Source: a virus (lineage: Duplodnaviria; Caudoviricetes). Taken from it: 64,000 bases of DNA. Positions 1 through 63,149 of this stretch are shown here, piece by piece. Location of the stretch: the IMG/VR virus record IMGVR_UViG_3300047160_001275, positions 12,250 through 76,249 of that record, one strand, 5' to 3'. Each line of letters begins with the position of its first letter. Within the stretch, counting starts at the first letter, position 1. The position numbers and the translations under genes were made by a program. The notes beneath the pieces are model-generated. The model searched no databases. It was given only the letters and a program-made list of their open reading frames with translations, and was not told the DNA's origin.

Positions 1-651
1 CGTCTCAGCCGGGGCGGCCAGACGGATCGCCCCGCCCTGCGGCGCTGGCCCCGGCATGGTCATGCGCGGCTTCTTGACCTCGGCCTTGCGCCCAGGCTCA
101 GCCAAAAACAGCCGTTGCAGAATCGCGCTTTTGGCGTCGGGAGCGACGAACTTCGACAACAACGCTGTGAACATCCCCTCGCAGCCGTCCTCGCCCCAGT
201 ACGGTAAACCGCTCACCCATCTGAGGCACGCGGGCCAGATGTCCATCCGCAAGCCCCGCTTCTTGAGGTAGCGAGAGGCGAGGTCGGTGCCGTCCAGCAT
301 CCTGGCCCGATACCACAGGGCCTGCATGTCGGCCTTCTGCATCTCCTGGGTGACGAAGCTCGGTTTGCGCCCGTCGAACCGCGCCCTCCCGATCACGCTC
401 TCGACCAGTTTCACCGCCTCGGTCCAATCGATCTTCTTCCATGTCATCACCAAATCCAGGCCCGAACCGTGGCCGCAGTTGTTGCACCACCAATCGCCGT
501 CGCCCTTGAAATTCGTGAACCGCCACCTGTCGACGCCGCCGCAGAACGGGCATGGGCCGTTGCGGCGGCTGTTCAGGAAACTGCGGTCGAACCCCAGCGC
601 CCCCAGAATCGACTCCCACCGACCGTGGGTCCGGTCAACGACGCTGTCCAT
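1..651 (-). CDS. DNA primase with N-terminal zinc-binding domain (P4 alpha-type), 3' end runs off the window
   Basis: Not in the ORF track because it is open to the edge. My translation from ATG at 651: MDSVVDRTHGRWESILGALG...GPCPFCGGVDRWRF...WWCNNCG...YLKKRGL. CPxCGGxDR plus CxxC zinc ribbon; overlaps the helicase stop. Confidence 0.85.
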   Translation of the reverse strand, partial: MDSVVDRTHGRWESILGALGFDRSFLNSRRNGPCPFCGGVDRWRFTNFKGDGDWWCNNCGHGSGLDLVMTWKKIDWTEAVKLVESVIGRARFDGRKPSFVTQEMQKADMQALWYRARMLDGTDLASRYLKKRGLRMDIWPACLRWVSGLPYWGEDGCEGMFTALLSKFVAPDAKSAILQRLFLAEPGRKAEVKKPRMTMPGPAPQGGAIRLAAPAET

Positions 652-2137
652 GCGCTTCCTTCCCCTTGGCGAACGCGATCTTGCGCGACTTGATCCACAT
701 CAGGGTCGGCCATGTCGGCGCGCGCGGGGCGTCGTCGTTCCACGCCCACGGCGGCCATTCTCCGAACCGGTTCCGGTAGCTCGCCGTCGGCCATTTCTGG
801 TTGTGGAGCTTGTCGGCCCCATACCAGCGAAGCTCGGCGTAAAAGGCCCGCCGCTCGGCTCTGGTCCATTGCTTGTCGCCGACCTTGACCGTCGGCTCCT
901 TGCCGACCTCGTACAACTCGCCGTTGACCGTCCTGACCTTGGAGGCGCGCTTGAACTCGTAGCCGCACCGGCACATCGTCGCCGTCGCCGGGACGATCTC
1001 GCCGCACCTTGGGCACTCTCTCGGCCTCGGCAATTCCGGCGGCTTCTTCTCCTCCGACCCCTCGGCGGGCTTGCCGCCGCGCAACTCCGTGCGCCCGATC
1101 TCGGTCACCAGCCCCAATTCGAGCGTGGCGTTCGAATGGTCCAAGATCAGCAAATGATCCTTGCCCTCGGCCTTGCGCAGACCCCTGCCGATCGCCTGCA
1201 CATAGAGAATCTCTGACTTGGTCGGCCTGACGAAGCTGATGCATCGGACGTCCATGTCGACGCCGTGGGTCATCGTGCCGACCGAGCAGATCACCTCGAT
1301 CTGTTTCATGTGAAACAGGTTGCGGATCGCCGCCCGCTCCTCGCGCGTGGTGTTCATGTCGACGTAAGCCGTCTTCACCCCGGCGTCGCGGAACTCGTCC
1401 GCCAGCTTTCCGGCATGAGCCCTATCCACAGCAAACAGCATGGTCGGCCTGCGATCAGCCTTCTCCAGCCACGTCCCCACCACGTCGGCGGTGATCTGCT
1501 TCTGGCTCATCCGCTCGCTAAGCTGGCCCTGGTTATAGTCGTCGGCCACCATCTCGATGCCCTTGAGATCGGGCTTGGTCGGAGCGAAGCAGCGGAAATC
1601 GCACAGATCCCCAGCCTTGATCATGTCGCGGATGGTCGCCGGGATCAGCAGATCGTCGTAATATTTGGCCATGCCCTTGGCCCAAGGAGTCGCCGACAAT
1701 CCAACGAAAATCTTCCGCTCGTCCTCCTCCATCCACTCCAGCACCGATCGGTACATGAGATGGCTCTCGTCGACGATCACGAACTCGACCTTCGGATTCT
1801 CGCGCTTGCCCAAGGTCTGCACCGAGCAAATCTGGATCGGCGCATGTGGACGCTTGAGCGGGTGATCGGCCTGCATCACCCCGATCTGCTCCGGGTCGAT
1901 GCCGTTCTGCTCGAACCGCTCGATCGTCTGGTCGACCAGCGAAATCAGCGGCACCGTGAACGCGGCCCTGTTCCCCTTCTCCAACGCCGAGGCGATCATG
2001 TGCGCCGCAATCACCGTCTTGCCCGCCGCTGTCGGCAACTGAAGCTGCGGACGTTTCTTGCCGCCGCGCACCGACGCCCGCATCATATCAAGCGCCTTGG
2101 CCTGAACCGGGCGAAGCGGGAACAGACCCTCGCTCAT
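635..2137 (-). CDS. Superfamily II DEAD/DEAH-box helicase (RadD/YejH-like) with C-terminal zinc finger
   Basis: LRPVQ, PTAAGKT (motif I), DESH (II), SAT (III), QAIGRGLR (VI), CPRCG...CRCG. Start moved to MSEGLF at 2137. Confidence 0.9.
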   Translation of the reverse strand: MSEGLFPLRPVQAKALDMMRASVRGGKKRPQLQLPTAAGKTVIAAHMIASALEKGNRAAFTVPLISLVDQTIERFEQNGIDPEQIGVMQADHPLKRPHAPIQICSVQTLGKRENPKVEFVIVDESHLMYRSVLEWMEEDERKIFVGLSATPWAKGMAKYYDDLLIPATIRDMIKAGDLCDFRCFAPTKPDLKGIEMVADDYNQGQLSERMSQKQITADVVGTWLEKADRRPTMLFAVDRAHAGKLADEFRDAGVKTAYVDMNTTREERAAIRNLFHMKQIEVICSVGTMTHGVDMDVRCISFVRPTKSEILYVQAIGRGLRKAEGKDHLLILDHSNATLELGLVTEIGRTELRGGKPAEGSEEKKPPELPRPRECPRCGEIVPATATMCRCGYEFKRASKVRTVNGELYEVGKEPTVKVGDKQWTRAERRAFYAELRWYGADKLHNQKWPTASYRNRFGEWPPWAWNDDAPRAPTWPTLMWIKSRKIAFAKGKEAHGQRR

Positions 2138-2373
2138 TGTTCTTCCGCCCACTCCAAGAGCTTGCGCGCCAGCTTGGCCGCCTCTCCCCTGGCGAGCGTC
2201 ACCAGACGCCTGCCACGGCTGCCGCCATGACGAATCACGAACTCTCCGTCATCATCGCAGAACGTCAGCAGATCCTCCGCGTCCTCGCTGTCGAGGATTT
2301 GGTAGATCACCCACTCAAAGTTGTTCGGCTTGCGCTTGCGCGTGCTCCCAGAGCCAGGCGCCCTCTCCCTCAC
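2134..2373 (-). CDS. hypothetical protein
   Basis: 79-aa ORF coupled to the helicase start by an ATGA overlap. Confidence 0.55.
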   Translation of the reverse strand: MRERAPGSGSTRKRKPNNFEWVIYQILDSEDAEDLLTFCDDDGEFVIRHGGSRGRRLVTLARGEAAKLARKLLEWAEEQ

Positions 2374-2402
2374 TCATTGCATCCCGCCTCGGCTGACGTC
2401 GC

Positions 2403-2678
2403 TCATTGCAGCGTCTCGCCCTCATGCCGATCGGCGTGCGTCTCGGAGTAAGCCCCGTGCGCCGCATTGACCACCGACTGGCGTGCGGACTCGATCCACT
2501 CGGAGACGTCTTCGATCTCCACCCCCCGTTGCACCATCGCCGCCATGAATCCACCCATCTCAGCAGAGAAATGAACGGCCGCCGCGCGCGGATTGCGCTT
2601 GTCGTAATAGCGCTGGGTCGCCTTGATGATCTTGCTCGCCGTCTTATACGCCCAGCGCTTGGCCTTCTTCTTGTTCAT
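2403..2678 (-). CDS. hypothetical protein
   Basis: 91-aa ORF in operon orientation with overlapping start/stop. Confidence 0.6.
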   Translation of the reverse strand: MNKKKAKRWAYKTASKIIKATQRYYDKRNPRAAAVHFSAEMGGFMAAMVQRGVEIEDVSEWIESARQSVVNAAHGAYSETHADRHEGETLQ

Positions 2679-2866
2679 TGCTTGCCGCTCCAGCCGTTGT
2701 CAGAAATCCATTGCGCCTCTGGCGTCAGCTTGGCCTTGGGCAGGTCAGGCGGCCGGTTCCATCTGGGCGCGCACTCCCGGAAATGGGCCAAGCGCGGCGC
2801 AGCGTCCAGCGTCACCATCTCGCCGCAGTGCGGGCACCGCTTGCGCCCCCATGTCCTGCTGGTCAT
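2675..2866 (-). CDS. small CxxC (CPHC) protein
   Basis: MTSRTWGRKRCPHCGE, GGAGG upstream of the start, coupled to the next gene. Confidence 0.5.
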   Translation of the reverse strand: MTSRTWGRKRCPHCGEMVTLDAAPRLAHFRECAPRWNRPPDLPKAKLTPEAQWISDNGWSGKQ

Positions 2867-3579
2867 CCCCGGTCCTCCCATTGCTTGATCTGTGGCCCGT
2901 CTCCCGTCATGCCCACACGGCGTCGATCCGCCAAGTTCTGCTTCCCCAACGTGGCCTCCCATAGCCTCATCCACCCTAGAGCCTTGGCAGCCGAAGCCGC
3001 GAGCGAAGCGAGAAAGGAAGGAAGCCCTGTACCGTCGGGTTCCACCGCGCTCCGCTGTGCCAATGCCCTAGACAGCATCGGCACCAAGGCCCCGCATCAG
3101 TGAGAGAGGACGCTATCAGGTCGCCCCGTGACGTGGGGCAAGGCGCTTGGCTGTGGGTACGTCGCCCCTCACAAGGCTACTGTGCCGCCAATATCCTGAC
3201 CTGTTTCGCTCCTTGCCAACTGCGGGAATTGAACGGGAACCGCCGGGTCAGCGGGCCTCTCTTCGCCACGATGCGCGTGGCCCTGCGCCTCGACCCATTG
3301 CCCGCTCCACAGACGCAGGCTACCGGCATTCCGGTCGTGGCTCTGGCGTGGCTTGGACGGGAGGAGGACTTGGGGATCGGCTATTTCAGCGCCGCCGGTG
3401 GCGCGTCTCAGGCGGGCATTGGCGACCCCATGCAGAAGCTGAAGCCGCAAGCGCCTTGACGGGGCCGGATCTTTTTGCTTAAGTTTGCGTCAGGCGACGC
3501 CATCTGAAGCTCGCGGCATTCGAGTTTCGTGGCGGTAGGGGGGTTGGTTCCACGGCCGACCTCCCCGCCACTTCCATTC

Positions 3580-3609
3580 ATATCGACTCATGTCCGACCG
3601 AGAGTCAAG
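3580..3609 (-). promoter_or_regulatory. putative sigma70-type promoter, CTTGAC-N18-CGATAT
   Basis: Close to the rhizobial CTTGAC-N17/18-CTATAT consensus; lies upstream of a ~500-bp poorly coding segment and the replication genes. Confidence 0.4.
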
Positions 3610-3629
3610 ACAGTAGTCTGACGAAATTG

Positions 3630-3998
3630 TCACGCCCCGCGCCCCGCCGTCATTTTGTGATGCAGGTCGCAGTAGCGCGGCTCCCGGTCGATCGGGCAAG
3701 GCGCGCAGCAATAACGGAAATCCTCACCCTTGGGGTCGCCGAAGGGATAGCGGCACTGGTCTGGCTCGATCGACAGGATCGCCAGCCCGGCGGCCGAGAC
3801 GGTTGTGAATAGCGGGGATAAGTCAGTCGGCCGGGGCGGCAAAATTGCGGTCGCGCTGAGGCCTAGCCTCCATATCTTCCCAACGATCGCCCCATACGAC
3901 CGCTGCATCATCACGGCGATCATCGTCGCCTGGAACTCGCCCACGAGGCTCCTCAGTTCCGCGATCTCCGCCTCGGTCCACAGATCCTCCCTTGGCAC
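3630..3998 (-). CDS. gcrA: GcrA-like cell-cycle transcription regulator
   Basis: N-terminal WTEAEIAELRSL...SYGAIVGKIWRLGL HTH; C-terminal ILSIEPDQCRYPFGDP...FRYCCAP...YCDLH. Confidence 0.8.
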   Translation of the reverse strand: MPREDLWTEAEIAELRSLVGEFQATMIAVMMQRSYGAIVGKIWRLGLSATAILPPRPTDLSPLFTTVSAAGLAILSIEPDQCRYPFGDPKGEDFRYCCAPCPIDREPRYCDLHHKMTAGRGA

Positions 3999-12067: not shown

Positions 12068-12312
12068 GGGCCGCTGCCGGGCGGGTGGCCGGGTCCGATC
12101 GCCGACCTCACCATGTCGCAATTTTCGTGGACCGGGATGAACCTTCCCGAAGTCGTCACGATCAGGCACCCCGTTCCGTGCGCCCAATGACCGGCCGAGA
12201 ACGTCCTCGGGTCGCGGATCGAGGTGATCTCGTTCGGATTGATGTCGACCCTGTGGCTGCCGTCAGGGGTCGAGAACTGGGCTAGCACGAGGGCGACGGT
12301 GAGCAGGCTCAT
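12031..12312 (-). CDS. small exported Cys-containing protein
   Basis: Signal-like MSLLTVALVLAQ; four Cys. Confidence 0.5.
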   Translation of the reverse strand: MSLLTVALVLAQFSTPDGSHRVDINPNEITSIRDPRTFSAGHWAHGTGCLIVTTSGRFIPVHENCDMVRSAIGPGHPPGSGPCTLVCGGSIRP

Positions 12313-45686: not shown

Positions 45687-47795
45687 TCAGTTGCGCCGGT
45701 CGGCCATTGGGGTCTTGTAGTCGTCCTGAATGCGCTTGCAGTACTCGTCGTAAGCGATGTCCTTGTCGGTCATCTGCACGCCGCTCTGATAGAAGCCAGC
45801 GCTGCGGCGGACGCCGTCCGACATGCCGTCGGCCATCCTGCGCACGCCCGATGCTTGCGCCTGGGCGGGGCCAGCGACTGCAAGATTGAACGCGCCGAGA
45901 ACCTGGGCGTCGTCCCAGCCGTCGATGAGCTTCTCGCCGCCCATCGCCGCCGCCGCGACCGCACGGCGGATCTCCTTCAGGCTCTGGGTTCCAAACTCAT
46001 ACGAGTCGCCGAGAACCTTGCGCGCCTGCGCCTTGACGGTGTCGCGGTCGCGCAGGATCTGCTCCTGCCGCTCCTCGCTGAACTCGGAATCCCTGAGCTT
46101 CTTCTTCAGGAGCGCAATCTCGCCGTCGCGGGCGGCGATCGAGTCGCGATAGCCGCGCTCCTTCTTCTCACGCGCCTGCTCAGCCGCCACCGCGTCTTGA
46201 TCGCGGGCGTCGGTGTCGTCTTCGTCATCGTCGTTGTCGTCGCCGCCATTGCCATTCTTCTTCTTGAACGGCGTGGCCTTCTTGCCGCCGAAGTTCTCGG
46301 CCTGATCGGCCACAAACTGTTCGAGGATCGACGCCGAAGCGCCATCGGAGACCTGCACCGGCAGGCCCCGGATCATCACCGTAACCATGTTCTCTGCTCC
46401 TTCCACGCCGCCATCGGCGTCTCCAGTTTCACCCAGTCCAGGCTCGCCCAGTTCGCGGGCGCGGCGGTTGATCAAGGCGCGGGCTGCCGCTGGGTTCTTG
46501 GCCCGCCCAATCGCCTGCTTGGCGTTAGCGAGATCGGCCTTGTTCTTGATCGGAAAGCCGCCATGCGGCAGCGCCTTGCCCTGCTTGGCGAGGCTCTTGC
46601 GTTCTTCTTCGCTGACGTCGCGGTCGTAGACCGCGGCCTCCGGGTATTTGGCGAAGTAGGCTTCCAGATCGGCGTCGCGGGTTTGCTTGCTCTTCGGCTG
46701 CCAGCGCTGAGCCTCGGTCGGCTTGCGCCAGCCGCGTGGGCCGAGCGGGCCTTCGTAGGAGTCAGGCTCACGCTCTGGCTCTTGGCCGGGCTTGCGCCAG
46801 CCGCGCCGGGCCAAATAGCCTTCAGAGGTGTCTGGGCTGGCCTTGGCTTCCTTCTCCCGCGCCGCCCAGGTGCGCTTCCGCGCCTCCAGCGCCGCCGCTC
46901 GCGCCTCCTCGCTCCAGGCGTCGTCGATGTCCGCGTCGCCGCCTTGGGTCGGCCGCTCGCGATAGCCGCAGGACGGGCATTCGTTGGCGTCCATCATCGC
47001 GCCACAGTTCGGGCACGGGCTCTTGGTCACCCCGTCGCCGAACCGTAAGGAGCGCCCGCCCCTGGCCACCGGCACCAGGGCGTGATGATTGGCTCTGATG
47101 TCCCGCTGCACCCCGTCATAAGCCTCGCCGTCGGGCGTCTGGCCTGGGGTCCAATCAATGTCGGTGGTGTAGCCGACGCTGAGTTCACGAACCCCGTTCT
47201 CGTAAGCCTCGATCGCCGCCGCGTCGGTCAGCATCAGCGGCACCCGCACATACTCGCCGTCCCTGACCACGTCGGAGCCAGAGAAGCCCTTGGCCACCTT
47301 GGCCCACGTCTTGGTGTCGACCATGCGCGACGGATGGGTGAGGGTGATCGGCTTGTTGGCCATCGAGTGCATGGCCGAAGCCGAGAACACTTCTTCCGGC
47401 GGACGATAGAGGGTGACGAAGTCGCGATCCCTCAGCCCGACCTCGCGGCCCCGGTAGCGCTGGGTGCCGACGCGGGCCACCAGCGCCTCGCACACCATGT
47501 AGCCGTCGCTAGTTCGCCTAACGTCGTCGAGCAGCGCCACGTCGTCGAGCAGCACGTCGCGGGTCCACATCTGTCCCTCCTGGTCGAGCAGGGCGTCGGC
47601 GGCGTGGGGCGGATGGGCCTGCCGCCACGCCGAGGACTTCTTGCCTCGGAGCTTGCCTTGCTTGGTTGCGGTCGCAGTGCCGGGCTTAAGGTTTCCGGCC
47701 TTCTGCATGGCTGCGGTGGCGATGGCCCAGGCCGAGGACTCGGAATGGCCCTTGGCCTGAATCTTCTCGGCCGCCTTGTGCAGGATGACGGGCAT
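45687..47795 (-). CDS. DUF2213 prohead protease/scaffold with inserted modules
   Basis: ARVGTQRYRG...RPPEEVF...KPITLTHP...ELSVGY...NHHALVPVARGG; extra N-terminal peptide, CPNC..CPSC, DAWSEEAR, and GKALPHGGFPIKN modules. Confidence 0.88.
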   Translation of the reverse strand: MPVILHKAAEKIQAKGHSESSAWAIATAAMQKAGNLKPGTATATKQGKLRGKKSSAWRQAHPPHAADALLDQEGQMWTRDVLLDDVALLDDVRRTSDGYMVCEALVARVGTQRYRGREVGLRDRDFVTLYRPPEEVFSASAMHSMANKPITLTHPSRMVDTKTWAKVAKGFSGSDVVRDGEYVRVPLMLTDAAAIEAYENGVRELSVGYTTDIDWTPGQTPDGEAYDGVQRDIRANHHALVPVARGGRSLRFGDGVTKSPCPNCGAMMDANECPSCGYRERPTQGGDADIDDAWSEEARAAALEARKRTWAAREKEAKASPDTSEGYLARRGWRKPGQEPEREPDSYEGPLGPRGWRKPTEAQRWQPKSKQTRDADLEAYFAKYPEAAVYDRDVSEEERKSLAKQGKALPHGGFPIKNKADLANAKQAIGRAKNPAAARALINRRARELGEPGLGETGDADGGVEGAENMVTVMIRGLPVQVSDGASASILEQFVADQAENFGGKKATPFKKKNGNGGDDNDDDEDDTDARDQDAVAAEQAREKKERGYRDSIAARDGEIALLKKKLRDSEFSEERQEQILRDRDTVKAQARKVLGDSYEFGTQSLKEIRRAVAAAAMGGEKLIDGWDDAQVLGAFNLAVAGPAQAQASGVRRMADGMSDGVRRSAGFYQSGVQMTDKDIAYDEYCKRIQDDYKTPMADRRN

Positions 47796-54800: not shown

Positions 54801-55954
54801 GCTCCGTTCGACGTGGGCTCCAATGTATGGAACGCCAGCCCGTCCGCCAGTAGGTTCTGATGTATTTTGCCCAGATCCCCTTTGGCCGGGAACGAGTACA
54901 TGTGGGCATTGGATTCAGGCCCCTCTTCCTCGCGGAAGATCAGCACCGCCTTCTGATCGCCGAGATGGCCCTTCATCGCCCCGGCCAGCTTCAGGCGATC
55001 CCAGTCCTCGCCGTCGACCTCGGTCATCAGGCTGCGTTCGGCCCCGTCCGCCCAAGCCCCGATCACCTGCGACGGGTAGCCGGTCATCCCCAGTTGCTGG
55101 TCGACGTCCTCGCTCGCCTCGGCGAACTTGCGCTCCCGCCTGGACAGCGGCGCTGTCGCTTGCGGCCAGTCCGACTGCCCGACATTGGGCGACACGAACT
55201 CGTAGCCCTCGGCGGAAGCCTCGGCCGTCCAGCGCCCGTGCGGATCGCGCGCCTCCGAGGGATCGAAGTCGAACATGGCGTCGAGCATCTTGTGCTCGCT
55301 CACCGTGCCGACCCATTGCACCCCGGCGTCCTCATAGGCGTCCAGGGTCGCCTGAGTGAACGCTTGCGTCAGCGCATGCTCGGCCAGCATCTTGCTGCGT
55401 TGAAGCCCGACGCCCATCTCGCGATCAACAAGCGCGGCGATCTGCGACGCCTGCCCACGGGGATGTGACAGGAGCCAGGCCGAAACGAGGGAAGAGACAT
55501 CCCGGCTGGCATCGTCGCAGACGCTCGCCAAGGACGCGACGCTGGCGTCCTTGCAAGCCTCACTGGAGCGCGGCCTCTTCTTGCGTTCGACGTATGACGT
55601 CTGGCTGACCGGCGGCCCGGCGAGGCTCTGGTAGTCCGCCACATAGGCGTCATGCACGCCCGTCGAGGCCCTCGCCCCGGCCGCGTCGACGTACGGCGCA
55701 AGCCATGAGCCATCGTCTCCCAGCACGTCGCTGGTCAACCGCTCGCTGAGCCAGCGCTCGAACAGCGCGGCCCTGTCGTCAGACGCCATGACCATAGCTC
55801 TCGGCCCTAAGCCCAGAGCGTCCTGGCTCACGATCGCACGCTTGACGTTCCGCGCCGCCTTGGTCCAGCGCCGCGCCATCTCGCCCTTGAGATAGACCCG
55901 CAAGTCCTCCAGCCCCATCGGGTCGGGCTTGGCGTCAAGGAACGGCGCGTTCAC
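51887..55954 (-). CDS. MuF/SPP1 gp7-like head morphogenesis protein with internal insertion and C-terminal ART-like domain
   Basis: RSKMLAEHALTQAF...; VLTAQDDKVCKVC...IPAHPNCRC (MuF core); C-terminal LYRS / ASFS / EQEVVV. Confidence 0.8.
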   Translation of the reverse strand: MNAPFLDAKPDPMGLEDLRVYLKGEMARRWTKAARNVKRAIVSQDALGLGPRAMVMASDDRAALFERWLSERLTSDVLGDDGSWLAPYVDAAGARASTGVHDAYVADYQSLAGPPVSQTSYVERKKRPRSSEACKDASVASLASVCDDASRDVSSLVSAWLLSHPRGQASQIAALVDREMGVGLQRSKMLAEHALTQAFTQATLDAYEDAGVQWVGTVSEHKMLDAMFDFDPSEARDPHGRWTAEASAEGYEFVSPNVGQSDWPQATAPLSRRERKFAEASEDVDQQLGMTGYPSQVIGAWADGAERSLMTEVDGEDWDRLKLAGAMKGHLGDQKAVLIFREEEGPESNAHMYSFPAKGDLGKIHQNLLADGLAFHTLEPTSNGAVVHVVDTDGSLKDATAKAAQRYGSDIHWRDGRAEFIGAHKEDGTDREQRDDARREYEGIIARSPVQEGRAVWQRLHHRWSAALAHDALDDLYGVKDALFDDARTSDKDLARLIRETANKPWFKPDIGAERQADLISRLSEARSRLPADASQLARDLMLASTGLRGISVRQAALAERLIGQAGPPPPTPSPAAARGPAEMREKYRSKRTGRFRRYLPIEGLQARAERAEAAFRRAPLEVDVLTAQDDKVCKVCEDIADNGPYRINVARGLIPAHPNCRCLFAPVGMFGDAILDFNPLHEPAGAEGGKGGQFAPKGESGSLAEQVAKTGAGFQQFGPSGDDKAKIDAVNAATDKFEKAHPEAAPEMHRWMSANLDKFMPSGKPVDLVGFRLAFAQWQEDRKAGPQADDTAPSPPIDVAGLDPAVVDVGGDAWNRHTAARLEREWQAAKPTVEADAEAIYKAGKVETGGGARTTWADLTSQQQDEVADNWKHDAYQQELDYQINSWQEESAKADAYELLADEFNHQADNQWPTEALNDLFEPQTSDEDHLPQPSQWEKGGLAPLPLGKDQILNALEARYDHHGGELEFRWAEGAIRAAIRARMGGDQPQFEGFEKPDYAKLLTPAMRDKIVATLKKAMDEVVDERIDQMDPPDYLGEYATESVNQDWDDKDDVDKFAIAMNQMPSLKQADWGRITRPAKLDPLNATSGMDYVNTQRIAKALFNRRAGEILDQRGLIKPGGIKNPTGMVVLADDFLWSDWLDASSTKGGQLLQLAASEELGGRLQSGGAHYSIDRHDVVEWADTNYPLIGGYEGIKALARAKWETTQYLLDHAGMKELNLYRSVTLPEAITDIAAKIEVAVGNLKYRLMPKVDIKKNGLASFSVADHIANNWDGSDRTVIRLNAPRTAILSVPAFGKNTASEQEVVVAGTAWKKWDAYHRQAPSVGWVPIGAEREATKEEMIAAVQKEVKGQHA

Positions 55955-56282
55955 CCGCTTCGCTCGGTATCTGGCGGATCACGTCCTTGTCGTCATGCGG
56001 CGTCGACGCCTCAAAGATCGTCCCCGCCTCCAGGCAATGCACCCGATGGACGCTGCGCGGCTTGACGTCCAAGGTGTCGCCGGGGCCGAGCAGATGTTTC
56101 ATCCCGTCCAGCGTCACCTCGAACTTGCCCGACAGCACGATCCAGCTTTCGTGCTTGAACCGGTGATAGTGCTCGCTAGCCCACGCGCCCTTGTCGAAAT
56201 GCAGCGACTTGCCGGTGTAGCGCTCGGTTTCCGCCCACACCTCCTCATGGCCCCACACCTTGGGCGCCACCCGCGCGATCAC
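55935..56282 (-). CDS. cupin-domain protein (sugar isomerase-like)
   Basis: PKVWGHEEVW...SEHYHRFKHESW...HRV...EASTPH. Confidence 0.8.
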   Translation of the reverse strand: MIARVAPKVWGHEEVWAETERYTGKSLHFDKGAWASEHYHRFKHESWIVLSGKFEVTLDGMKHLLGPGDTLDVKPRSVHRVHCLEAGTIFEASTPHDDKDVIRQIPSEAGERAVP

Positions 56283-58309
56283 GCGCGCCGTCCCGGCCTG
56301 ACCCCTTCGATGGTCTGGCCCAGATACGGATTGGCCTTGTCGAGAGCGAACGCCCGATGAATCAGATCCGACACGTCGTCGTCGGACTCGGCGTCGTGAG
56401 TGGCAGGCGCGTGATGCCGCAACCCCTCCAGATAGACGTGCGCCTCGCGCAACGCCAACTGCCCTTCGCCGACCGCAACCCCGACCCGGCCGATCGCGCC
56501 CTTGCGCATGTCGCCGACCGCAAACACGCCAGGGATCGAGGTCTCCAGCTTGGCGTCGGTCTGCACCCGGCCAGCCGGATCACGCTTCACCTTGCCCTCC
56601 AGCCAGCCGGTCTCTGGCACGCTGCCCAGGAACACCCCCAACGCCTTGGCGGGCACCACCCGCCCATGGTCGGTCTCGACGCTGATCGGATCGCCATGCG
56701 CGTCCCGATTCATCTTGGTCACCGTATCGCCCTCGATCACCGTCACCTTCGGATGGTTGCGCAACGCCTCGACCTGATAGTCGCTCATCCCCTTGGTGAT
56801 CAGCGATCGGGAGATGAGGGTGACGTGCTTGGCCTTGCTGGCCGCGCCCAGCGCCGCCTGGGCCGCCCCATTCGAGCCGCCGACCACCACCGCCTCGCCG
56901 TCCTTGCACGCCTCGGTCAAAGCCTTGCCGTCGCCGACGATCACCCCAGACCCTTCCGATCCGGCGAACACCGGGTGGCGGAACTCCACCCCGCCCGCCA
57001 GGATCACCGTGCGGCTGTCGACGTGCTCGCCATTGCTCAAGGTCAGGTGCTTGATCCCGGTCGCCGGGTCATAGTCGATGCCGGTCACCCGCTGGCCGAG
57101 CTTGGTTTCCGCCCCCAGCCGCGTCGCCTGGGCGAACATGTCGCTCGTTAGCTTCTCGCCGGTCACCCCCACCGGGAAGCCGGGGAAATTCTCGATCCGG
57201 CTCGAATACTTGGCCTGCCCTCCAGGCGCGGCGTTGCTCTCCACCACCAAAGTGTCGAGGCCCTCAGCGCCGCCGAAGATCGAAGCCGCCAATCCGCCGG
57301 GGCCTGCGCCGACCACGGTCACGTCACGCGGCCCTCCCGGCAGCCCGATCCCTTCCGGCCCGCCAGGATCGGCGTGCAGGCCGTGCATCTGGTGGACCAA
57401 AGCCTCAAGCTCGTCGATCTTCTTCTGCGCTTCCGGCGAGTCTGGCCTGTCGACATAGGTCAGTAGCTCATTGTTGACCTTGGCCCACTGGTCCTTGAGG
57501 CGATGGAACTTCTCCACGTCGCCGGGCGCCAAGCCATAGCCGCCCGACGTCCATTTGCCCGCCGGATCGCGTGGCTCGTCGGGGTCGAAGTCGGAGATCT
57601 CGCGCGGATCGAAGTCGTCCAAGGCGTCGGCGAAATCCTGCAAGCCAGCCAACACCGTATCCTCGGCGTCCGCCTGCCCGCGCCAGTCGACCGGACGCTC
57701 GCTCAACTCAGGCAGCTTGGTGATCTCGTGATAGTGGTCGAGCACCGCATGAGTCGCGCTCTTCAAGATCTCGTGCGCCCGCTCAGGCGTGAAGCCATGC
57801 TTTTTGGCCAGATGCCCGATCGCATATTTGACCACCTCGTGGCCGAGATAGCCAGCGCCCCAGGCGAACGCCGCCGGAATGCCGAGATGCGCCACCCCCA
57901 TCGCCGTGGCAGCGCCGCCGATGATCTCGATCACATGCGCCGACACCTCGCCCAGGACCGCGTGATGCGCCACCCCCTCGGCGTGATGGGCGACGAAATG
58001 CGCAATGGCGTTGGGGATGGCGTGCGCGACCCCAGGATGAGCTAGGAGCGCGTCGACCGCCGCCTGATGAGCGATGAACGCCGCCGAGGTCGCCGCCGCC
58101 TGCGGGATGAACCACGCCGTCATCTGGGACCAGTCATGCTCGCCGAACTCGCTCTCGGCCGAAGACCCCTCGGCCGTGGTCCATTCGCCCCGCTCGTTGC
58201 GCGGCTGGTCGGGATCGTAATCCTCTAGCTCTTCGTCCTCTGGCTCTAGCTGCTCGGCCAGTTCCTCTTCTTCATCGGGGTCGAACCAGATCCGCTTGAG
58301 CGCGGTCAT
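56279..58309 (-). CDS. tagged protein with C-terminal thioredoxin-reductase-like FAD oxidoreductase domain
   Basis: GAGPGG, APGGQA...SSRIENFPGFP.GVTG, ETSIPGVFAVGD; two DxDPxxPRxxxGxW tags; no CxxC. Confidence 0.8.
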   Translation of the reverse strand: MTALKRIWFDPDEEEELAEQLEPEDEELEDYDPDQPRNERGEWTTAEGSSAESEFGEHDWSQMTAWFIPQAAATSAAFIAHQAAVDALLAHPGVAHAIPNAIAHFVAHHAEGVAHHAVLGEVSAHVIEIIGGAATAMGVAHLGIPAAFAWGAGYLGHEVVKYAIGHLAKKHGFTPERAHEILKSATHAVLDHYHEITKLPELSERPVDWRGQADAEDTVLAGLQDFADALDDFDPREISDFDPDEPRDPAGKWTSGGYGLAPGDVEKFHRLKDQWAKVNNELLTYVDRPDSPEAQKKIDELEALVHQMHGLHADPGGPEGIGLPGGPRDVTVVGAGPGGLAASIFGGAEGLDTLVVESNAAPGGQAKYSSRIENFPGFPVGVTGEKLTSDMFAQATRLGAETKLGQRVTGIDYDPATGIKHLTLSNGEHVDSRTVILAGGVEFRHPVFAGSEGSGVIVGDGKALTEACKDGEAVVVGGSNGAAQAALGAASKAKHVTLISRSLITKGMSDYQVEALRNHPKVTVIEGDTVTKMNRDAHGDPISVETDHGRVVPAKALGVFLGSVPETGWLEGKVKRDPAGRVQTDAKLETSIPGVFAVGDMRKGAIGRVGVAVGEGQLALREAHVYLEGLRHHAPATHDAESDDDVSDLIHRAFALDKANPYLGQTIEGVRPGRRA

Positions 58310-60669
58310 TTGACGATGCTCACGTCGACCACGAACGGATGCTGCGGCGTCTTGCGGCCCAGCCTCGGCACGTTGCCCAGATGAATCACCTCCTGATTCG
58401 GCGCATGCACCCCGTCGATCCTGAACTTGACGCCCCTAGGCAGGATCACCTCATGCTGCTGCATGCCACTCTTGAAATCCTGCGAATGGCGGAAGTTGGT
58501 GCCATGCGTGTCGAACGCGCTCTGGCCTTTCTCGGCGTGGATGTGGAACACGATGTGCTCGCCAGCGTGCGGCCCAAAGGCGTAATCGTAGGCGACCGCC
58601 TGCTTGGTGGTCGCCGAAGTGAAGCCCTTCATCTGGACCACCTTGCCCAGCGCCTGGGTCAGCGTCTTGGACGACAGCTTCTTGTTGCCCATCAGCCCGC
58701 GATAAAGCAGCGTGTCATTCTGGAGCTTCGATCGCCGGATCGCCTTGTCAGTATCAGCGACGCCTCTGGCGTCGGCCTGCGACATGTACGACTTGCCAGT
58801 CCCCTGGCCGCGCAACGCTCGGTTCCAGCGCTTGTAGCCTTCCTCGGTGTACTTGCCCAAGCCCTTGATCTCGTCCCTGCTCAACGGCCCGCCGTGCAGC
58901 TTGGAGAGCTTGCCGACCGTGTCGCCCTTGCTGAACGATCCGCCGCCGCCCGACGTCCATTCGCCCTTGGGATCGCGCGGCTCGTCGGGGTTGTAGTCCT
59001 CGAATGCGGCGTCCTTGCCAAACCGACCGCCCCCTTGCTGCGGCATCGGCGACGGCGGCAGCGCCCGTCCAGGCGGGGCGCGAATCGGCAACCCTGCCTG
59101 CTGCATCTGCTGGGCGCGCATCATGTGGAACGGGTTGGCCTCGAACTGCCCCTTGTTCATCATGCCGGGAGGCGGGGTCGGCAATTGCCGCATCTGCTGC
59201 TGCGGCTCTTCCGGCTTCAGCCCGAACTCGTCAGCCGCGTCGTCCCACCCCGGATAGATGTCGTCCTCGGAGATCTGCGACGCCACCGACTGCCGGAACA
59301 TGTCGTCGTTGAACAGCCCCAGCGACGAATAGACCTGCGTCGTCTGCGCCTTCTGCAACTCGGCCTGCGCCTTCTCGGCAGGCGTCGGCTTGTACAAAGG
59401 GTTCCAGATGTAGTCGATGTCGGGGTCGTACTTGCCCAACGCCGACGATTGGATCGCCACGTCAAGCGGGTGCATCAGCGGCTTGTAACGGGTGCGCTGA
59501 TCGGCCGCGATCGAATCGTAATAGTTGCGAATGTCGACCTCGCCGCCGCTCGACCCCTTGGCGTCCAAGCCGCGCGCAGGCGCTGACCCCATCGCCCGGC
59601 TCTGCGGAATGCCGCCCGCCGCGCACACGATCTGCATCACCACCCGAATAAGCTCAGGCGTCGAGCCGAAGCTGGTCTGAATCCGGTTCCACTCTTCTTC
59701 CTTGTCGAGCAGGAGGGTGTTGATGCTGCTCTTCGCCGTGTTGGCCAGGGTGAACCGCTGCAACAGCTTGTTGGTCAGTTCCGGCGTCGACATCTTGCGC
59801 GACAGTTCCGGCAGCTTGACCACGTCCATCTTGGCGTCGTTGATCATCGAGGCGAGGCCGCCGACGATCATGGCGAAGTCGGAGAGCGCATCCTCGACCG
59901 TCTGCAACACCGAGTCGCCCCAGCCGCCGCCCATCGGCGCGAGCCGCCAGTCGGGCAACTCGTTGCCGTAGAACTCGATCACCCGCGACGGGTGGATGTA
60001 GACCGGGTTCTGCGCCTCCACCCACTGCCTGCTCTTGTCGCCCCCAGGCGGGTCCTTGCCGTATGAGACCGGCGGCGGCGATGCGCCGAACCGGCCCGCA
60101 GGATCTCTGCCGAAGCCGCTGACCGGGATTTGGCTCCCCGGCCATGCGCCGCCCTGTTCGCCCATGAAGCCGAACATCGGCGTCGCGATCTGATAATATT
60201 CCGGCCGCGTGTAGTACGGCGAGTTGACGTTGTAGATGCGCGGCCCGGCGTTCAATTCGTAGCGATTCAAAACGACCACAAACTCCAAATCGTCCTTGCC
60301 GATGTCCTCAAGGTCAAGCTCATCCTCGGGCTGGCCCTGGTCGACCCCCATCACCAGAGCCGCGCCGCCGTAGAGCCGCGCGCGGATCAACGCCATCTGC
60401 ATCTTCTTCTGGACTTGCAGCTTACGCTCACACGCGCCGATCGCCGCGATCTGCTTGTCGTTGGCCTGCCACGCCCGCCATTCCTTGGTCGCGTCCTCGG
60501 CGGGGGCGTCGACGATGATCTTGGCCAGCCAGTCAGAGCGATACATCGTCTCCAAGACGCTCCGGTCCAGTAGCTGGAGCATCCACTGGTTGCCGGTGCG
60601 CGGGTCTTTCTGCGTCCCCAGGCCAGAGACGAAATTGACCAGCGTGTCGCGCAGGGTGATGAAGCCCAT
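58306..60669 (-). CDS. DUF1073 portal protein fused to a C-terminal VIP2-like ADP-ribosyltransferase
   Basis: Portal: YRSDWLAKIIVDAPAED...ARLYGG...IHPSRVI...WGDSVL. ART: KYTEEGYKRWNRALR...LYRG...FTSAT...QHEVILPRG.KFRI. Confidence 0.88.
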   Translation of the reverse strand: MGFITLRDTLVNFVSGLGTQKDPRTGNQWMLQLLDRSVLETMYRSDWLAKIIVDAPAEDATKEWRAWQANDKQIAAIGACERKLQVQKKMQMALIRARLYGGAALVMGVDQGQPEDELDLEDIGKDDLEFVVVLNRYELNAGPRIYNVNSPYYTRPEYYQIATPMFGFMGEQGGAWPGSQIPVSGFGRDPAGRFGASPPPVSYGKDPPGGDKSRQWVEAQNPVYIHPSRVIEFYGNELPDWRLAPMGGGWGDSVLQTVEDALSDFAMIVGGLASMINDAKMDVVKLPELSRKMSTPELTNKLLQRFTLANTAKSSINTLLLDKEEEWNRIQTSFGSTPELIRVVMQIVCAAGGIPQSRAMGSAPARGLDAKGSSGGEVDIRNYYDSIAADQRTRYKPLMHPLDVAIQSSALGKYDPDIDYIWNPLYKPTPAEKAQAELQKAQTTQVYSSLGLFNDDMFRQSVASQISEDDIYPGWDDAADEFGLKPEEPQQQMRQLPTPPPGMMNKGQFEANPFHMMRAQQMQQAGLPIRAPPGRALPPSPMPQQGGGRFGKDAAFEDYNPDEPRDPKGEWTSGGGGSFSKGDTVGKLSKLHGGPLSRDEIKGLGKYTEEGYKRWNRALRGQGTGKSYMSQADARGVADTDKAIRRSKLQNDTLLYRGLMGNKKLSSKTLTQALGKVVQMKGFTSATTKQAVAYDYAFGPHAGEHIVFHIHAEKGQSAFDTHGTNFRHSQDFKSGMQQHEVILPRGVKFRIDGVHAPNQEVIHLGNVPRLGRKTPQHPFVVDVSIVK

Positions 60670-60672
60670 GGC

Positions 60673-60894
60673 TCAGCCGTAACGGATGAGATGGACCGGC
60701 TCGCCCAGCAACAAGCCGATGAACATCGCCAGGGCAATTAGCGCCACCACGGCGACATAGAGCCTCTGCACGATCATCGGCGCTGGCCAGCCCAAGGCCG
60801 TCAGCACCCATTGGATGACCGCGCCGACCAGAATCAACGCCACCACCGCGATGATGATGTTGATCAGCCCCAGGAGCACGCCAGTCAGGCTCAT
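60673..60894 (-). CDS. small two-TM membrane protein
   Basis: Two hydrophobic helices separated by GWPAP. Confidence 0.65.
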   Translation of the reverse strand: MSLTGVLLGLINIIIAVVALILVGAVIQWVLTALGWPAPMIVQRLYVAVVALIALAMFIGLLLGEPVHLIRYG

Positions 60895-61118
60895 GGCGCG
60901 TACCGCCATGTCAGAGCCTTCACGCACCACATCTGGGCGGTCATGCTCTCGCGGATAGCCTCTATGAAGAGAGCCTCGTGCTCTGGGCCGTTGGCCTGCG
61001 CCATAAGCTCATGGCACAGGTCGATGATCTCTGCGAACTTGGTCTTGACCCTGTCGACGTCGGGGTTGGCGCTCGGGTTGAAGTCCAAGCCAACCGCCTT
61101 CTGTCCATAAGTGGTCAT
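60891..61118 (-). CDS. Acb2/Tad1-like helical-hairpin protein (putative signalling-nucleotide sponge)
   Basis: VGLDFNPS...VDRVK.KFAEIIDLC...AQMWCVKALT pattern; recognised from memory. Confidence 0.6.
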   Translation of the reverse strand: MTTYGQKAVGLDFNPSANPDVDRVKTKFAEIIDLCHELMAQANGPEHEALFIEAIRESMTAQMWCVKALTWRYAP

Positions 61119-61793: not shown

Positions 61794-63149
61794 TCACCCC
61801 ACCCAAGACAGAGTCGAATCGTATTGTGACCCGGTGATCATCAGTTCGCTCAACGCCCACACCAGCGCGTCGACGCGATCCGGCGAGCCCTCGCCCATAT
61901 AGCCGTCGGTCGCCATTTGCGTCATCTGGTCTTCTAGGAGCGGCATGTCGCCGACATGGGACACCAGGGAGCGCTCATAGAGGGTCGCCACCGGCTCGGC
62001 CCGCTGGATCTTGCCGCGTGAGGCGACGACCTCCTGATAGGCGACATATTCATTGGCCCCGGCAGCCATCTTGATCGTGTGCTCGACCATCGCGCCGCCG
62101 AAATTGCGTTCTGCGACAATGCGATCGGCGTCGAACTCGCGATAGGCGTCTATGGCCCGTCGAGCCCAAGCGGCAGGGGATAGCTTGCAACTACGATCAG
62201 CCAGCACATAGCCTCGACCATCCACGCCGCGACCAGCCACCACGATGCCAATAGAAGAGGAAGCCACATCGCTCATCGTCCTCGCGCCTGACGGATCGAT
62301 CGCCACCACCACGCGGGCGAGATCGGGAACCGGAGATGGCGCGTTGGCCCTGGCGTCATCGATCATCGTGCGGGTCCAAAGCGCGCCGGGCAAATCCTCG
62401 ATGATCTCGGCGTTGATCTCCTGGCGGCCGACCCGCGTGCCCTCCAAGGGCTTGATCACCTCGTCGTAATAAACTTGGTTAAGGTTGACCCGGTTGTCCC
62501 AGGTCGAGCCGACGGTGAGGTGGGTCGATTCAGCTTTCGCCAGCCGTTTGATCAGCGGAATCGGCCGTGGCGTGGTGGTGACGATGCCCCTCGGCTTGCC
62601 CTCGCGCATGCCGAACAGCATGTTGGTCCAGCCGTCCTGGGCCCGCCGAGCCTTGGCTAGCTCGTCCCACCAGAAGAAAGAGCCCGAAGCGCCGCGCGTC
62701 ACTTCGGGGTCCTCCGCCGAGAACAGGAGGGCTCGCGCGCCATTCGGCCATTTCAAAACGGACTGGCCGGGATGGTAAGAGGGCCTGTGCTCGGGCGGTC
62801 CGACGTTGAGGAACCCACTCTGCCCCTCGATCGAGTATTGCCGCATATCGAAGGCGGTGTCGGCGACGAAGCTCATCACCCGAGGGCAGTGTGGCGCGGC
62901 GATGAGCGGCGTCGGGCCCCGGATCATTGCGGCGATGTTCTCGACCGCCGTGCGGGTCTTGCCCCAACCGCGCCCGGTCATGATCATCCAGATGAACCAG
63001 TCGCCTTCTGGCAACTGTTGCTCGGGGCGACCCCAAAAGCCCCAGTCCCAGGTCAGCGCTTTTGCCTGCGTCTCAGTTAAGCCGTCGAGGATCGCGTTCC
63101 TCTGCGAGGCGCTCAGCAATGCCAGCGATCCTGCCTCGGATAAGCTCAC
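61794..63149 (-). CDS. terL: terminase large subunit
   Basis: GRGWGKTR (Walker A), FWWDE (Walker B), VTTTPRP, VVAIDPS, SPDRVDALVW. Confidence 0.95.
   Translation of the reverse strand: MSLSEAGSLALLSASQRNAILDGLTETQAKALTWDWGFWGRPEQQLPEGDWFIWMIMTGRGWGKTRTAVENIAAMIRGPTPLIAAPHCPRVMSFVADTAFDMRQYSIEGQSGFLNVGPPEHRPSYHPGQSVLKWPNGARALLFSAEDPEVTRGASGSFFWWDELAKARRAQDGWTNMLFGMREGKPRGIVTTTPRPIPLIKRLAKAESTHLTVGSTWDNRVNLNQVYYDEVIKPLEGTRVGRQEINAEIIEDLPGALWTRTMIDDARANAPSPVPDLARVVVAIDPSGARTMSDVASSSIGIVVAGRGVDGRGYVLADRSCKLSPAAWARRAIDAYREFDADRIVAERNFGGAMVEHTIKMAAGANEYVAYQEVVASRGKIQRAEPVATLYERSLVSHVGDMPLLEDQMTQMATDGYMGEGSPDRVDALVWALSELMITGSQYDSTLSWVG

Follow-up and report, generated by a model that had tools for sequence, protein, structure and literature searches.

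Can the portal protein of a tailed phage be the carrier of an enzyme, and what would such an enzyme do at this place? The question is raised by a locus in a 64,000-nucleotide stretch of viral DNA (the window; positions 12,250 to 76,249 of the IMG/VR record IMGVR_UViG_3300047160_001275), in which a portal gene runs on into an ADP-ribosyltransferase (ART) domain. The record is a viral contig of 76,249 bp from an uncultured phage, assembled from a soil metagenome and rated 100% complete by CheckV. The first-pass annotation had described a DUF1073 portal continuing in frame through a Q/P-rich linker and a short junction tag into a VIP2-like ART of the R-S-E type with LYRG, FTSAT and QHE motifs. 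This description of the gene holds: the 787 codons of the open reading frame (ORF) are uninterrupted, PF06381 and PF03496 are both matched, and the three motifs stand at the quoted places. Judging from its sequence, the portal-ART fusion is well formed and probably active (Table 1).

The portal part matches PF06381 (Phage_portal_3) with 270.8 bits against a cut-off of 33.8, over profile positions 3-356 of 357. This is the only PF06381 match of the 76,249-bp record, where searches with PF06381 and PF04860 reveal no second portal, and it adjoins the gene of the large terminase (TerL). Identity to the portals of Aminobacter, Rhizobium and Pseudomonas phages reaches 32-37% and is confined to residues 1-500, while the capsid protein is 47% identical to relatives in phages of the same three genera, so that by sequence comparison both proteins appear distantly related to their counterparts in these phages. 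The portal is separated from the ART by a spacer of about 110 residues, the second half of which is rich in proline and glutamine (35% of residues 486-556, with 14 P and 11 Q in 71 residues), and then come the tag and a Gly-rich stretch. The span of 58306-59000 originally singled out for this fusion corresponds to residues 557-787, i.e., to the tag and the ART, which form the final 231 codons of the ORF. PF03496 (ADPrib_exo_Tox), proposed in the first-pass annotation as a check by hidden Markov model, is matched at E 2.9e-13 with 50 bits against a cut-off of 23.4 (profile positions 16-178 of 196), and with 53.3 bits in a six-frame search of the genome. Besides the portal family phrog_146, the PHROGs database returns weak matches to Alt-like and exoenzyme-type ART families. 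The LYRG motif occupies residues 655-658 (58696-58707), FTSAT residues 683-687 (58609-58623), and QHE residues 738-740 (58450-58458).

Since the record is a metagenome assembly and the cluster of the portal-ART protein has a single member, the fusion might be an artefact of assembly or sequencing that joins two genes, or even two genomes. Contigs from the Logan collection, assembled independently from other soil runs of low depth, nevertheless follow the window with 0 differences over 58413-59049 and 58869-59019, which span the tag-ART junction, and also over 59103-59280 and 58131-58410, the latter including the stop codon of the ART and the beginning of the gene after it. The check for misassembly was thus successful at the tag-ART junction and incomplete in the linker, of which 53 bases (59050-59102) are without contig cover, like some other bins; given such shallow data, this gap is not a sign of a break. 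One further contig, with 19- and 24-base matches joined over 58097-58639, was discarded as most likely coming from another organism. The guanine-plus-cytosine content at third codon positions is even along the ORF (0.883 in the portal, 0.877 in the linker, and 0.865 in the ART), the linker, as far as the tag, has homology with that of the closest portals, which also run on into cargo, and many independent portal-ART proteins are known from metagenome clusters. An artefact is, in view of these data, scarcely credible. The production of a separate ART from an internal start was rejected as well, the in-frame ATG and TTG codons of residues 493-604 lacking a convincing upstream Shine-Dalgarno sequence.

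The catalytic residues of the ART are conserved. In a 12-row alignment of the domain with 11 ARTs borne by other portals or head proteins, R657, S685, and E740 occupy invariant columns, in agreement with the R-S-E-type triad (R-S-[Q]xE) of the first-pass annotation. The profile built from this alignment detects 32 ART domains among 153 related proteins, and the arginine, the serine, and the second glutamate are kept in 32/32. The first position of the [Q/E]xE motif is more variable, with 27 ExE, 3 QxE, 1 DxE, and 1 TxE; the QxE carriers are the present ART, P0092, and the first domain of P0066. By sequence, QxE thus appears as a minority variant, yet not a unique one, among portal-linked ARTs.

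The predicted structure points in the same direction. A single-sequence AlphaFold prediction of the tag and ART reached a pLDDT (predicted local distance difference test) of 35.6 only and was replaced by an AlphaFold2 model of the ART based on the 12-row alignment, with a pLDDT of 75.3 and a pTM (predicted template modelling score) of 0.73. In a Foldseek comparison of this model with the PDB, all listed matches are ARTs (Lmo0066, CPILE-a, C3bot1, VIP2, CDTa, iota-Ia, Plx2A, Vis, and Certhrax), with E values of about 1e-8 to 1e-7, a probability of 1.00, and TM-scores of 0.50-0.57; the root-mean-square deviations of 7-10 Å are due to the inclusion of low-confidence loops. These matches to C3, VIP2, and iota agree with the VIP2-like label given at first pass. 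Among solved structures, the best fold match (E 1.3e-8) is Lmo0066 of Listeria monocytogenes (PDB 8za7), an ART toxin that is also the nearest PDB sequence found by phmmer (E 0.0078), together with C3larvin, whose QYE aligns with QHE. An ART fold with an intact NAD-binding and catalytic set is therefore supported by computation, and activity is predicted.

Some features could nevertheless be expected of an enzymatically dead or decaying ART that would merely add bulk to the inner end of the portal or plug it structurally. Glutamine replaces the first glutamate kept by 27 of the 32 related domains, and the loop ahead of QHE, which exceeds that of the nearest relatives by about 13 residues, is poorly modelled (pLDDT <50 at model residues 156-163). 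However, the arginine, the serine, and the essential second glutamate are all retained, the ORF is intact with native codon usage, and QxE is a functional variant in C3-type enzymes, where it goes with non-arginine acceptors. A dead domain is on this evidence decidedly improbable. Because the catalytic variant is QxE, an acceptor other than arginine is suggested by analogy, and the target may then differ from that of most portal-borne ARTs. It is also conceivable, albeit very improbable, that this QxE ART is tethered at the inner crown of the portal and modifies nucleic acid instead of protein, i.e., the phage DNA in transit or its leading end. Such a crown-tethered enzyme would represent a portal-coupled anti-restriction mark on DNA, set during packaging or ejection.

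The likeness to C3- and VIP2-type toxins has its limits. C3bot1, C3larvin, and Plx2A, as well as VIP2, iota, and CDTa, share with the present domain the PF03496 family and the predicted fold, and C3larvin also the aligned QxE, but the identity is only 15-20% and these proteins are toxins that are secreted and have Rho or actin of eukaryotes as substrates. The portal-borne ART belongs to a phage structural protein and has no secretion-signal context, so its target must be bacterial or viral; to our knowledge, bacteria have no Rho GTPases. The similarity to C3-like, asparagine-specific ARTs is thus one of motif and not of membership in a class defined by secreted single-domain exoenzymes modifying Asn41 of Rho.

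The second distinctive element of the gene is the junction tag, with the consensus DPxxPRDxxGxW and a short form FNPNHD..G.F. The strict pattern occurs three times in the window, once in the portal (residue 560) and twice in the next gene (residues 32 and 242), which encodes a flavoprotein. The variant DFDPSEARDPHGRW is found in the MuF-type protein of the same phage (residues 229-242), with a looser version near residue 690. In related portals, the full or short tag ends the linker and recurs between successive cargo domains, with four copies in P0003 and two in each of P0010, P0062, P0117, and P0130. Likeness between portals stops at residues 555-588, around the tag, past which the cargo differs. 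At the DNA level, the copies are 61-71% identical to the reference copies in repeat families, and the two most alike (57548-57598 and 58954-59004) share 40 of 51 bases, with a longest exact run of 13 bases; near-identical DNA copies are thus ruled out by identities of 61-78%. The tag region has no match among PDB sequences, and a literature search with its written forms returned nothing relevant and no paper naming it.

As far as sequences can tell, the tag marks cassette boundaries in part of the portal family and there precedes every cargo module, a free-standing cargo protein with the tag at its N-terminus included. This is compatible with a processing site, a loading signal, or a mere conserved recombination junction as in polymorphic toxins. 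Its position near the N-terminus of the free flavoprotein and before the inserts of the MuF protein fits a loading and/or processing signal. That the tag is a general signal for both, by which enzyme cassettes are interchangeable among portal, MuF, and free-standing genes across many phages, is held to be more probable than the DNA-mark reading.

The first-pass annotation implied that a fusion of portal and ART was novel. This finds no support: 1.84 billion cluster representatives, searched exhaustively with HMMER, yielded 7,266 portal relatives, and of the 149 other proteins among the best 150 of these, 127 have at least 620 residues, i.e., room for an extension. A Pfam scan of 63 extended portals of the clade (620-1000 residues) identified as the main cargos Acb1, the anti-CBASS 2H phosphodiesterase, in 32 and PF03496 in 18 (six of them also with PF01129). 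Single cases carry a Nudix domain, a bacterial topoisomerase IB, PBECR3, a histidine phosphatase (His_Phos), or a cysteine dioxygenase (CDO). Even the closest relatives have exchanged their cargo: the ART lies far downstream in P0008, while P0010 carries a thioredoxin-reductase-like flavoprotein and P0013 carries Acb1. Other head proteins are affected too, with ESM Atlas clusters for Portal_Mu-MuF-ART (54 and 50 members), MuF-ART (114), Phage_min_cap2-ART (70), and DUF2213-protease-ART (64). Fusions of this kind are also described by Iyer et al. (PMC5512222, PMC9503650). The architecture is therefore not rare but widespread in metagenomes and already described, and the present gene is a good example rather than a discovery.

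Portals of the 2H/Acb1 type are devoid of the tag, their cargo being joined directly, as in …DAAPRTLYVRRDVLN…HVT… for Acb1. Iyer et al. treat the portal-Acb1 type as 2H-portal fusions; no paper on portal-Acb1 fusions under that name was found in a literature search. In the nearest viral-contig relative, IMGVR_UViG_3300037200_000067 (411-3656, + strand), a portal of 1081 residues is 54% identical to the present one up to the tag. It continues with a Gly-rich linker, the tag DFDPDQPRDPAGKW, a domain of about 200 residues, a short-form tag DFNPNHDPKTGQF, and a hydrophobic domain rich in Gly, Ala, and His that resembles that of the flavoprotein gene in the window; Pfam detects only the portal in this protein.

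Among 50,697 phage isolate records, no protein covers at least 80% of the portal-ART, and the fused form is for this reason mostly a metagenome phenomenon so far. A tblastn search of the same isolates with the ART gave one weak match (Bacillus phage S4-3, 31%). A word-index search with the C-terminal 288 residues, or with the ART alone, retrieved one protein of 1070 residues that combines a Zeta toxin and an ART with four tags. The same index returned no free-standing ART relatives of 117-375 residues, which says little as it needs shared 5-mers.

Several known systems resemble this gene. Fusions of portal and MuF proteins with ARTs and further effectors were reported by Iyer et al. (PMC5512222, PMC9503650), the 2017 study listing PBECR, 2H, and InPase domains as partners of portals and proposing packaging and injection (PMC5512222). 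The common points are an effector at the C-terminus of a head protein, a gene located in the packaging module, and predicted packaging into the head (PMC5512222, PMC9503650). Indeed, the portal-ART has the arrangement retained in 2017, i.e., an effector fused to a portal or MuF protein among virion and packaging genes. That set differs in consisting of comparative-genomics predictions, the combination of a PF06381 portal, a tag, and a QxE ART not being singled out in the accessible text. The present genome, for its part, has three adjacent cargo carriers (portal, tagged flavoprotein, and MuF).

MuF toxins (Jamet et al. 2017, PMC5576092), such as the EFV MuF-ART of Enterococcus faecalis, likewise display a conserved head-protein N-terminus with a variable C-terminus, often an ART, and are encoded beside portal and terminase genes (PMC5576092). 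The present carrier is, by contrast, the portal, the MuF protein of the phage being encoded by a separate gene. By analogy, the ART might be a polymorphic toxin with which the virion kills competitor bacteria or cells devoid of immunity, an immunity protein shielding the lysogen or producer. Variable C-terminal domains behind a conserved junction are indeed a hallmark of polymorphic toxins (PMC3482391, PMC5576092), and the closest solved relative in sequence, Lmo0066, is the ART toxin that Listeria pairs with an ARH as immunity protein. Lmo0066 is, however, a free-standing bacterial toxin with a cognate ARH, whereas no Macro or ARH gene occurs anywhere in the phage record; an unrecognised immunity protein may exist. 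The downstream gene encodes another tagged cargo protein, of 676 residues, instead of a small immunity protein, and the commonest other cargos of the clade (Acb1, Nudix, and TopoIB) are anti-defence or DNA enzymes and not toxins. Delivery of a killing toxin is consequently considered improbable.

A functional parallel is offered by Alt of phage T4. Alt is a free, arginine-specific protein with an N-terminal capsid-targeting sequence that is cut by the prohead protease, and as a virion component it acts at once upon infection. The present domain is of the same R-S-E type and has a weak match to the Alt-like family phrog_802 (E 4.5e-5), no stretch of which passes alone. It differs from Alt by its marginal sequence similarity, by the QxE motif, and by a loading that would occur through covalent fusion to the portal. 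No N-terminal targeting peptide is present; the ART is internal to the portal polypeptide and is preceded by the conserved tag.

The favoured reading, to which about an even chance is given, is that the ART is loaded into the head and, after its release, enters the host together with the DNA. The C-terminus of solved portals faces the capsid interior. The portal ring, once built into the procapsid, would thus bring up to 12 ART copies into the head with no need for a separate packaging signal; the number of 12 per virion, close to that advanced in the first-pass annotation, holds only if every subunit keeps its extension. The siting at the DNA exit and the roles in host takeover, anti-defence, or DNA modification, also advanced there, are equally conjectural. 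The extension would then be severed in the linker or tag region during head maturation, the DUF2213 head maturation protease encoded in this genome being a candidate for cargo release inside the prohead. A tethered ART is not injectable, and the analogy with Alt thus requires this cleavage step. Once freed, the enzyme would exit along with the DNA and, in the manner of Alt, ADP-ribosylate components of the host during the opening minutes of infection. The general idea of a virion-associated ART, already put forward at first pass, is consistent with the PF03496 score above cut-off, the modelled ART fold, and the location of the gene beside TerL in the head module. It also conforms to the prediction of Iyer et al. 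that portal- and MuF-fused effectors are packaged in the head and injected (PMC5512222, PMC9503650).

Alternatively, the ART may stay covalently attached to the portal and never be injected. It would then act in the producer cell, late in infection and from unassembled subunits, or inside the head at the crown. Its targets would be the portal or the terminase, sensors with which the host monitors the packaging machinery, or the DNA of the phage. A cleavage site is not demonstrable, and the commonest cargo of the clade, Acb1 (32/63), is fused with no tag and could work from a cytoplasmic portal pool. Iyer et al. 2022 raise the possibility that such ARTs counter immunity aimed at the portal or terminase (PMC9503650). 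The QxE variant, found in non-arginine ARTs and aligned here with the QYE of C3larvin, may be added to these points. On the other hand, the long flexible linker and the junction motif common to free-standing and MuF-borne cargo have the look of a processing or loading signal, and the matches obtained among PDB sequences and structures belong to the C3/VIP2 protein-modifying group. A permanently tethered ART is hence judged rather unlikely, although it is the most serious competitor of the injected one.

Several observations weigh against release and injection. Neither the capsid protein nor the protease of the phage contains the tag, and we know of no cleavage specificity established for DUF2213 proteases. 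As the Acb1-type fusions of the clade have no tag, release is perhaps not required in general. The word-index, cluster, and tblastn searches yield no close relatives of the present ART, and the lack of Macro and ARH genes in the record deprives the proposal of the partners of a regulated ADP-ribosylation cycle. In this reading, the steps of packaging, cleavage, and ejection are inferred, as are the copy number and the target. The literature search gave nothing usable on the C-terminal processing of portals with ARTs, and a preprint on phi24B was dismissed as a parallel as it concerns a free polyvalent ejection protein and not a portal fusion.

The portal-ART gene belongs to a head module in which TerL is followed by the portal-ART, the tagged flavoprotein, a cupin, the MuF polyvalent protein, and then the protease and capsid genes (Table 1).

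Table 1. Features of the portal-ART gene and of the surrounding head module, with positions in the window
Feature	Positions	Strand	Basis and remarks
Portal-ART gene, 787 aa	58306..60669	-	Uninterrupted ORF; single PF06381 match of the 76,249-bp record
Portal core PF06381/DUF1073, aa 39-445	59335..60555	-	Pfam E 1.8e-80; phrog_146 E 1.4e-99
Post-portal segment and P/Q-rich linker, aa 446-556	59002..59334	-	Contains PPPGMMNKGQFEANPFHMMRAQ, which the closest portals also conserve
Junction tag DYNPDEPRDPKGEW, aa 558-571	58957..58998	-	Likeness to the closest portals stops around the tag
ADP-ribosyltransferase PF03496, aa 596-756, R657/S685/Q738-x-E740	58402..58884	-	Pfam, alignment, model, Foldseek
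C-terminal extension of the ART, aa 757-787	58306..58401	-	Last strand common with P0046 and P0003
ATGA overlap between the portal-ART stop and the start codon of the tagged flavoprotein, encoded next; translational coupling	58306..58309	-	
Tagged flavoprotein, 676 aa	56279-58309	-	PF07992 E 3.7e-34, thioredoxin-reductase-like; start overlaps the portal-ART stop
Small cupin	55935-56282	-	PF07883 E 5e-11; phrog_7851 'cysteine dioxygenase'
MuF-type polyvalent protein, 1355 aa	51887-55954	-	PHROG head-morphogenesis matches at aa 8-213 and in the zinc-ribbon region aa 626-668
DUF2213 head maturation protease with scaffold-like extension	45687-47795	-	phrog_530 E 1.7e-74
75-aa ORF between terminase and portal	60891-61118	-	Sub-threshold Acb2/Tad1 hairpin PF24729
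TerL (PF03237/PF17289)	61794-63149		Pfam

The flavoprotein is composed of an acidic N-terminus, the first tag, a hydrophobic His/Ala-rich segment, the second tag, and the flavoprotein domain. Its modules are also found fused straight to portals elsewhere: BLAST relates the flavoprotein to P0010 (66% identity), P0146 (50%), and P0153 (41%), and P0007, P0011, and P0130 have the His/Ala-rich segment at their C-terminal end. The MuF protein, which has no Pfam match at all, shares its modules with portals in the same manner according to BLAST, the insert of residues 230-470 occurring on P0021, P0033, P0105, P0115, and P0152 and the C-terminal 550 residues on P0075, P0104, and P0128. Three cargo carriers, i.e., the portal, the free tagged flavoprotein, and the MuF protein, are thus adjacent in this genome.

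Some side observations concern the same module. The C-terminal end of the MuF protein, with LYRS, SFS, and EQE, looks like a second, different ART that is missed by PF03496 and by the 12-row ART profile. The cupin may be another head-associated enzyme; a cysteine dioxygenase (PF05995) is the cargo of one of the 63 related portals. The N-terminus of the protease has about 70 additional residues; further on, the protein displays a zinc ribbon (CPNC/CPSC) and two copies of an RGWRKP segment, and its C-terminus is long and scaffold-like. The protease family can be an ART carrier too, as in the 64-member ESM Atlas cluster that fuses DUF2213 to PF03496. The 75-residue ORF has no PHROG match and scores 20.3 bits (E 6.4e-4) against PF24729, for which the cut-off is 27.

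Portal-borne enzymes emerge as a widespread and experimentally untouched route for bringing phage proteins into the next host, the extensions of this portal clade being dominated by anti-CBASS Acb1 and ARTs. The portal-ART belongs to this large class, which is computationally described and experimentally unexplored, and the present genome, with three cargo carriers side by side and a common junction tag, is a clear example of it without introducing a new principle.

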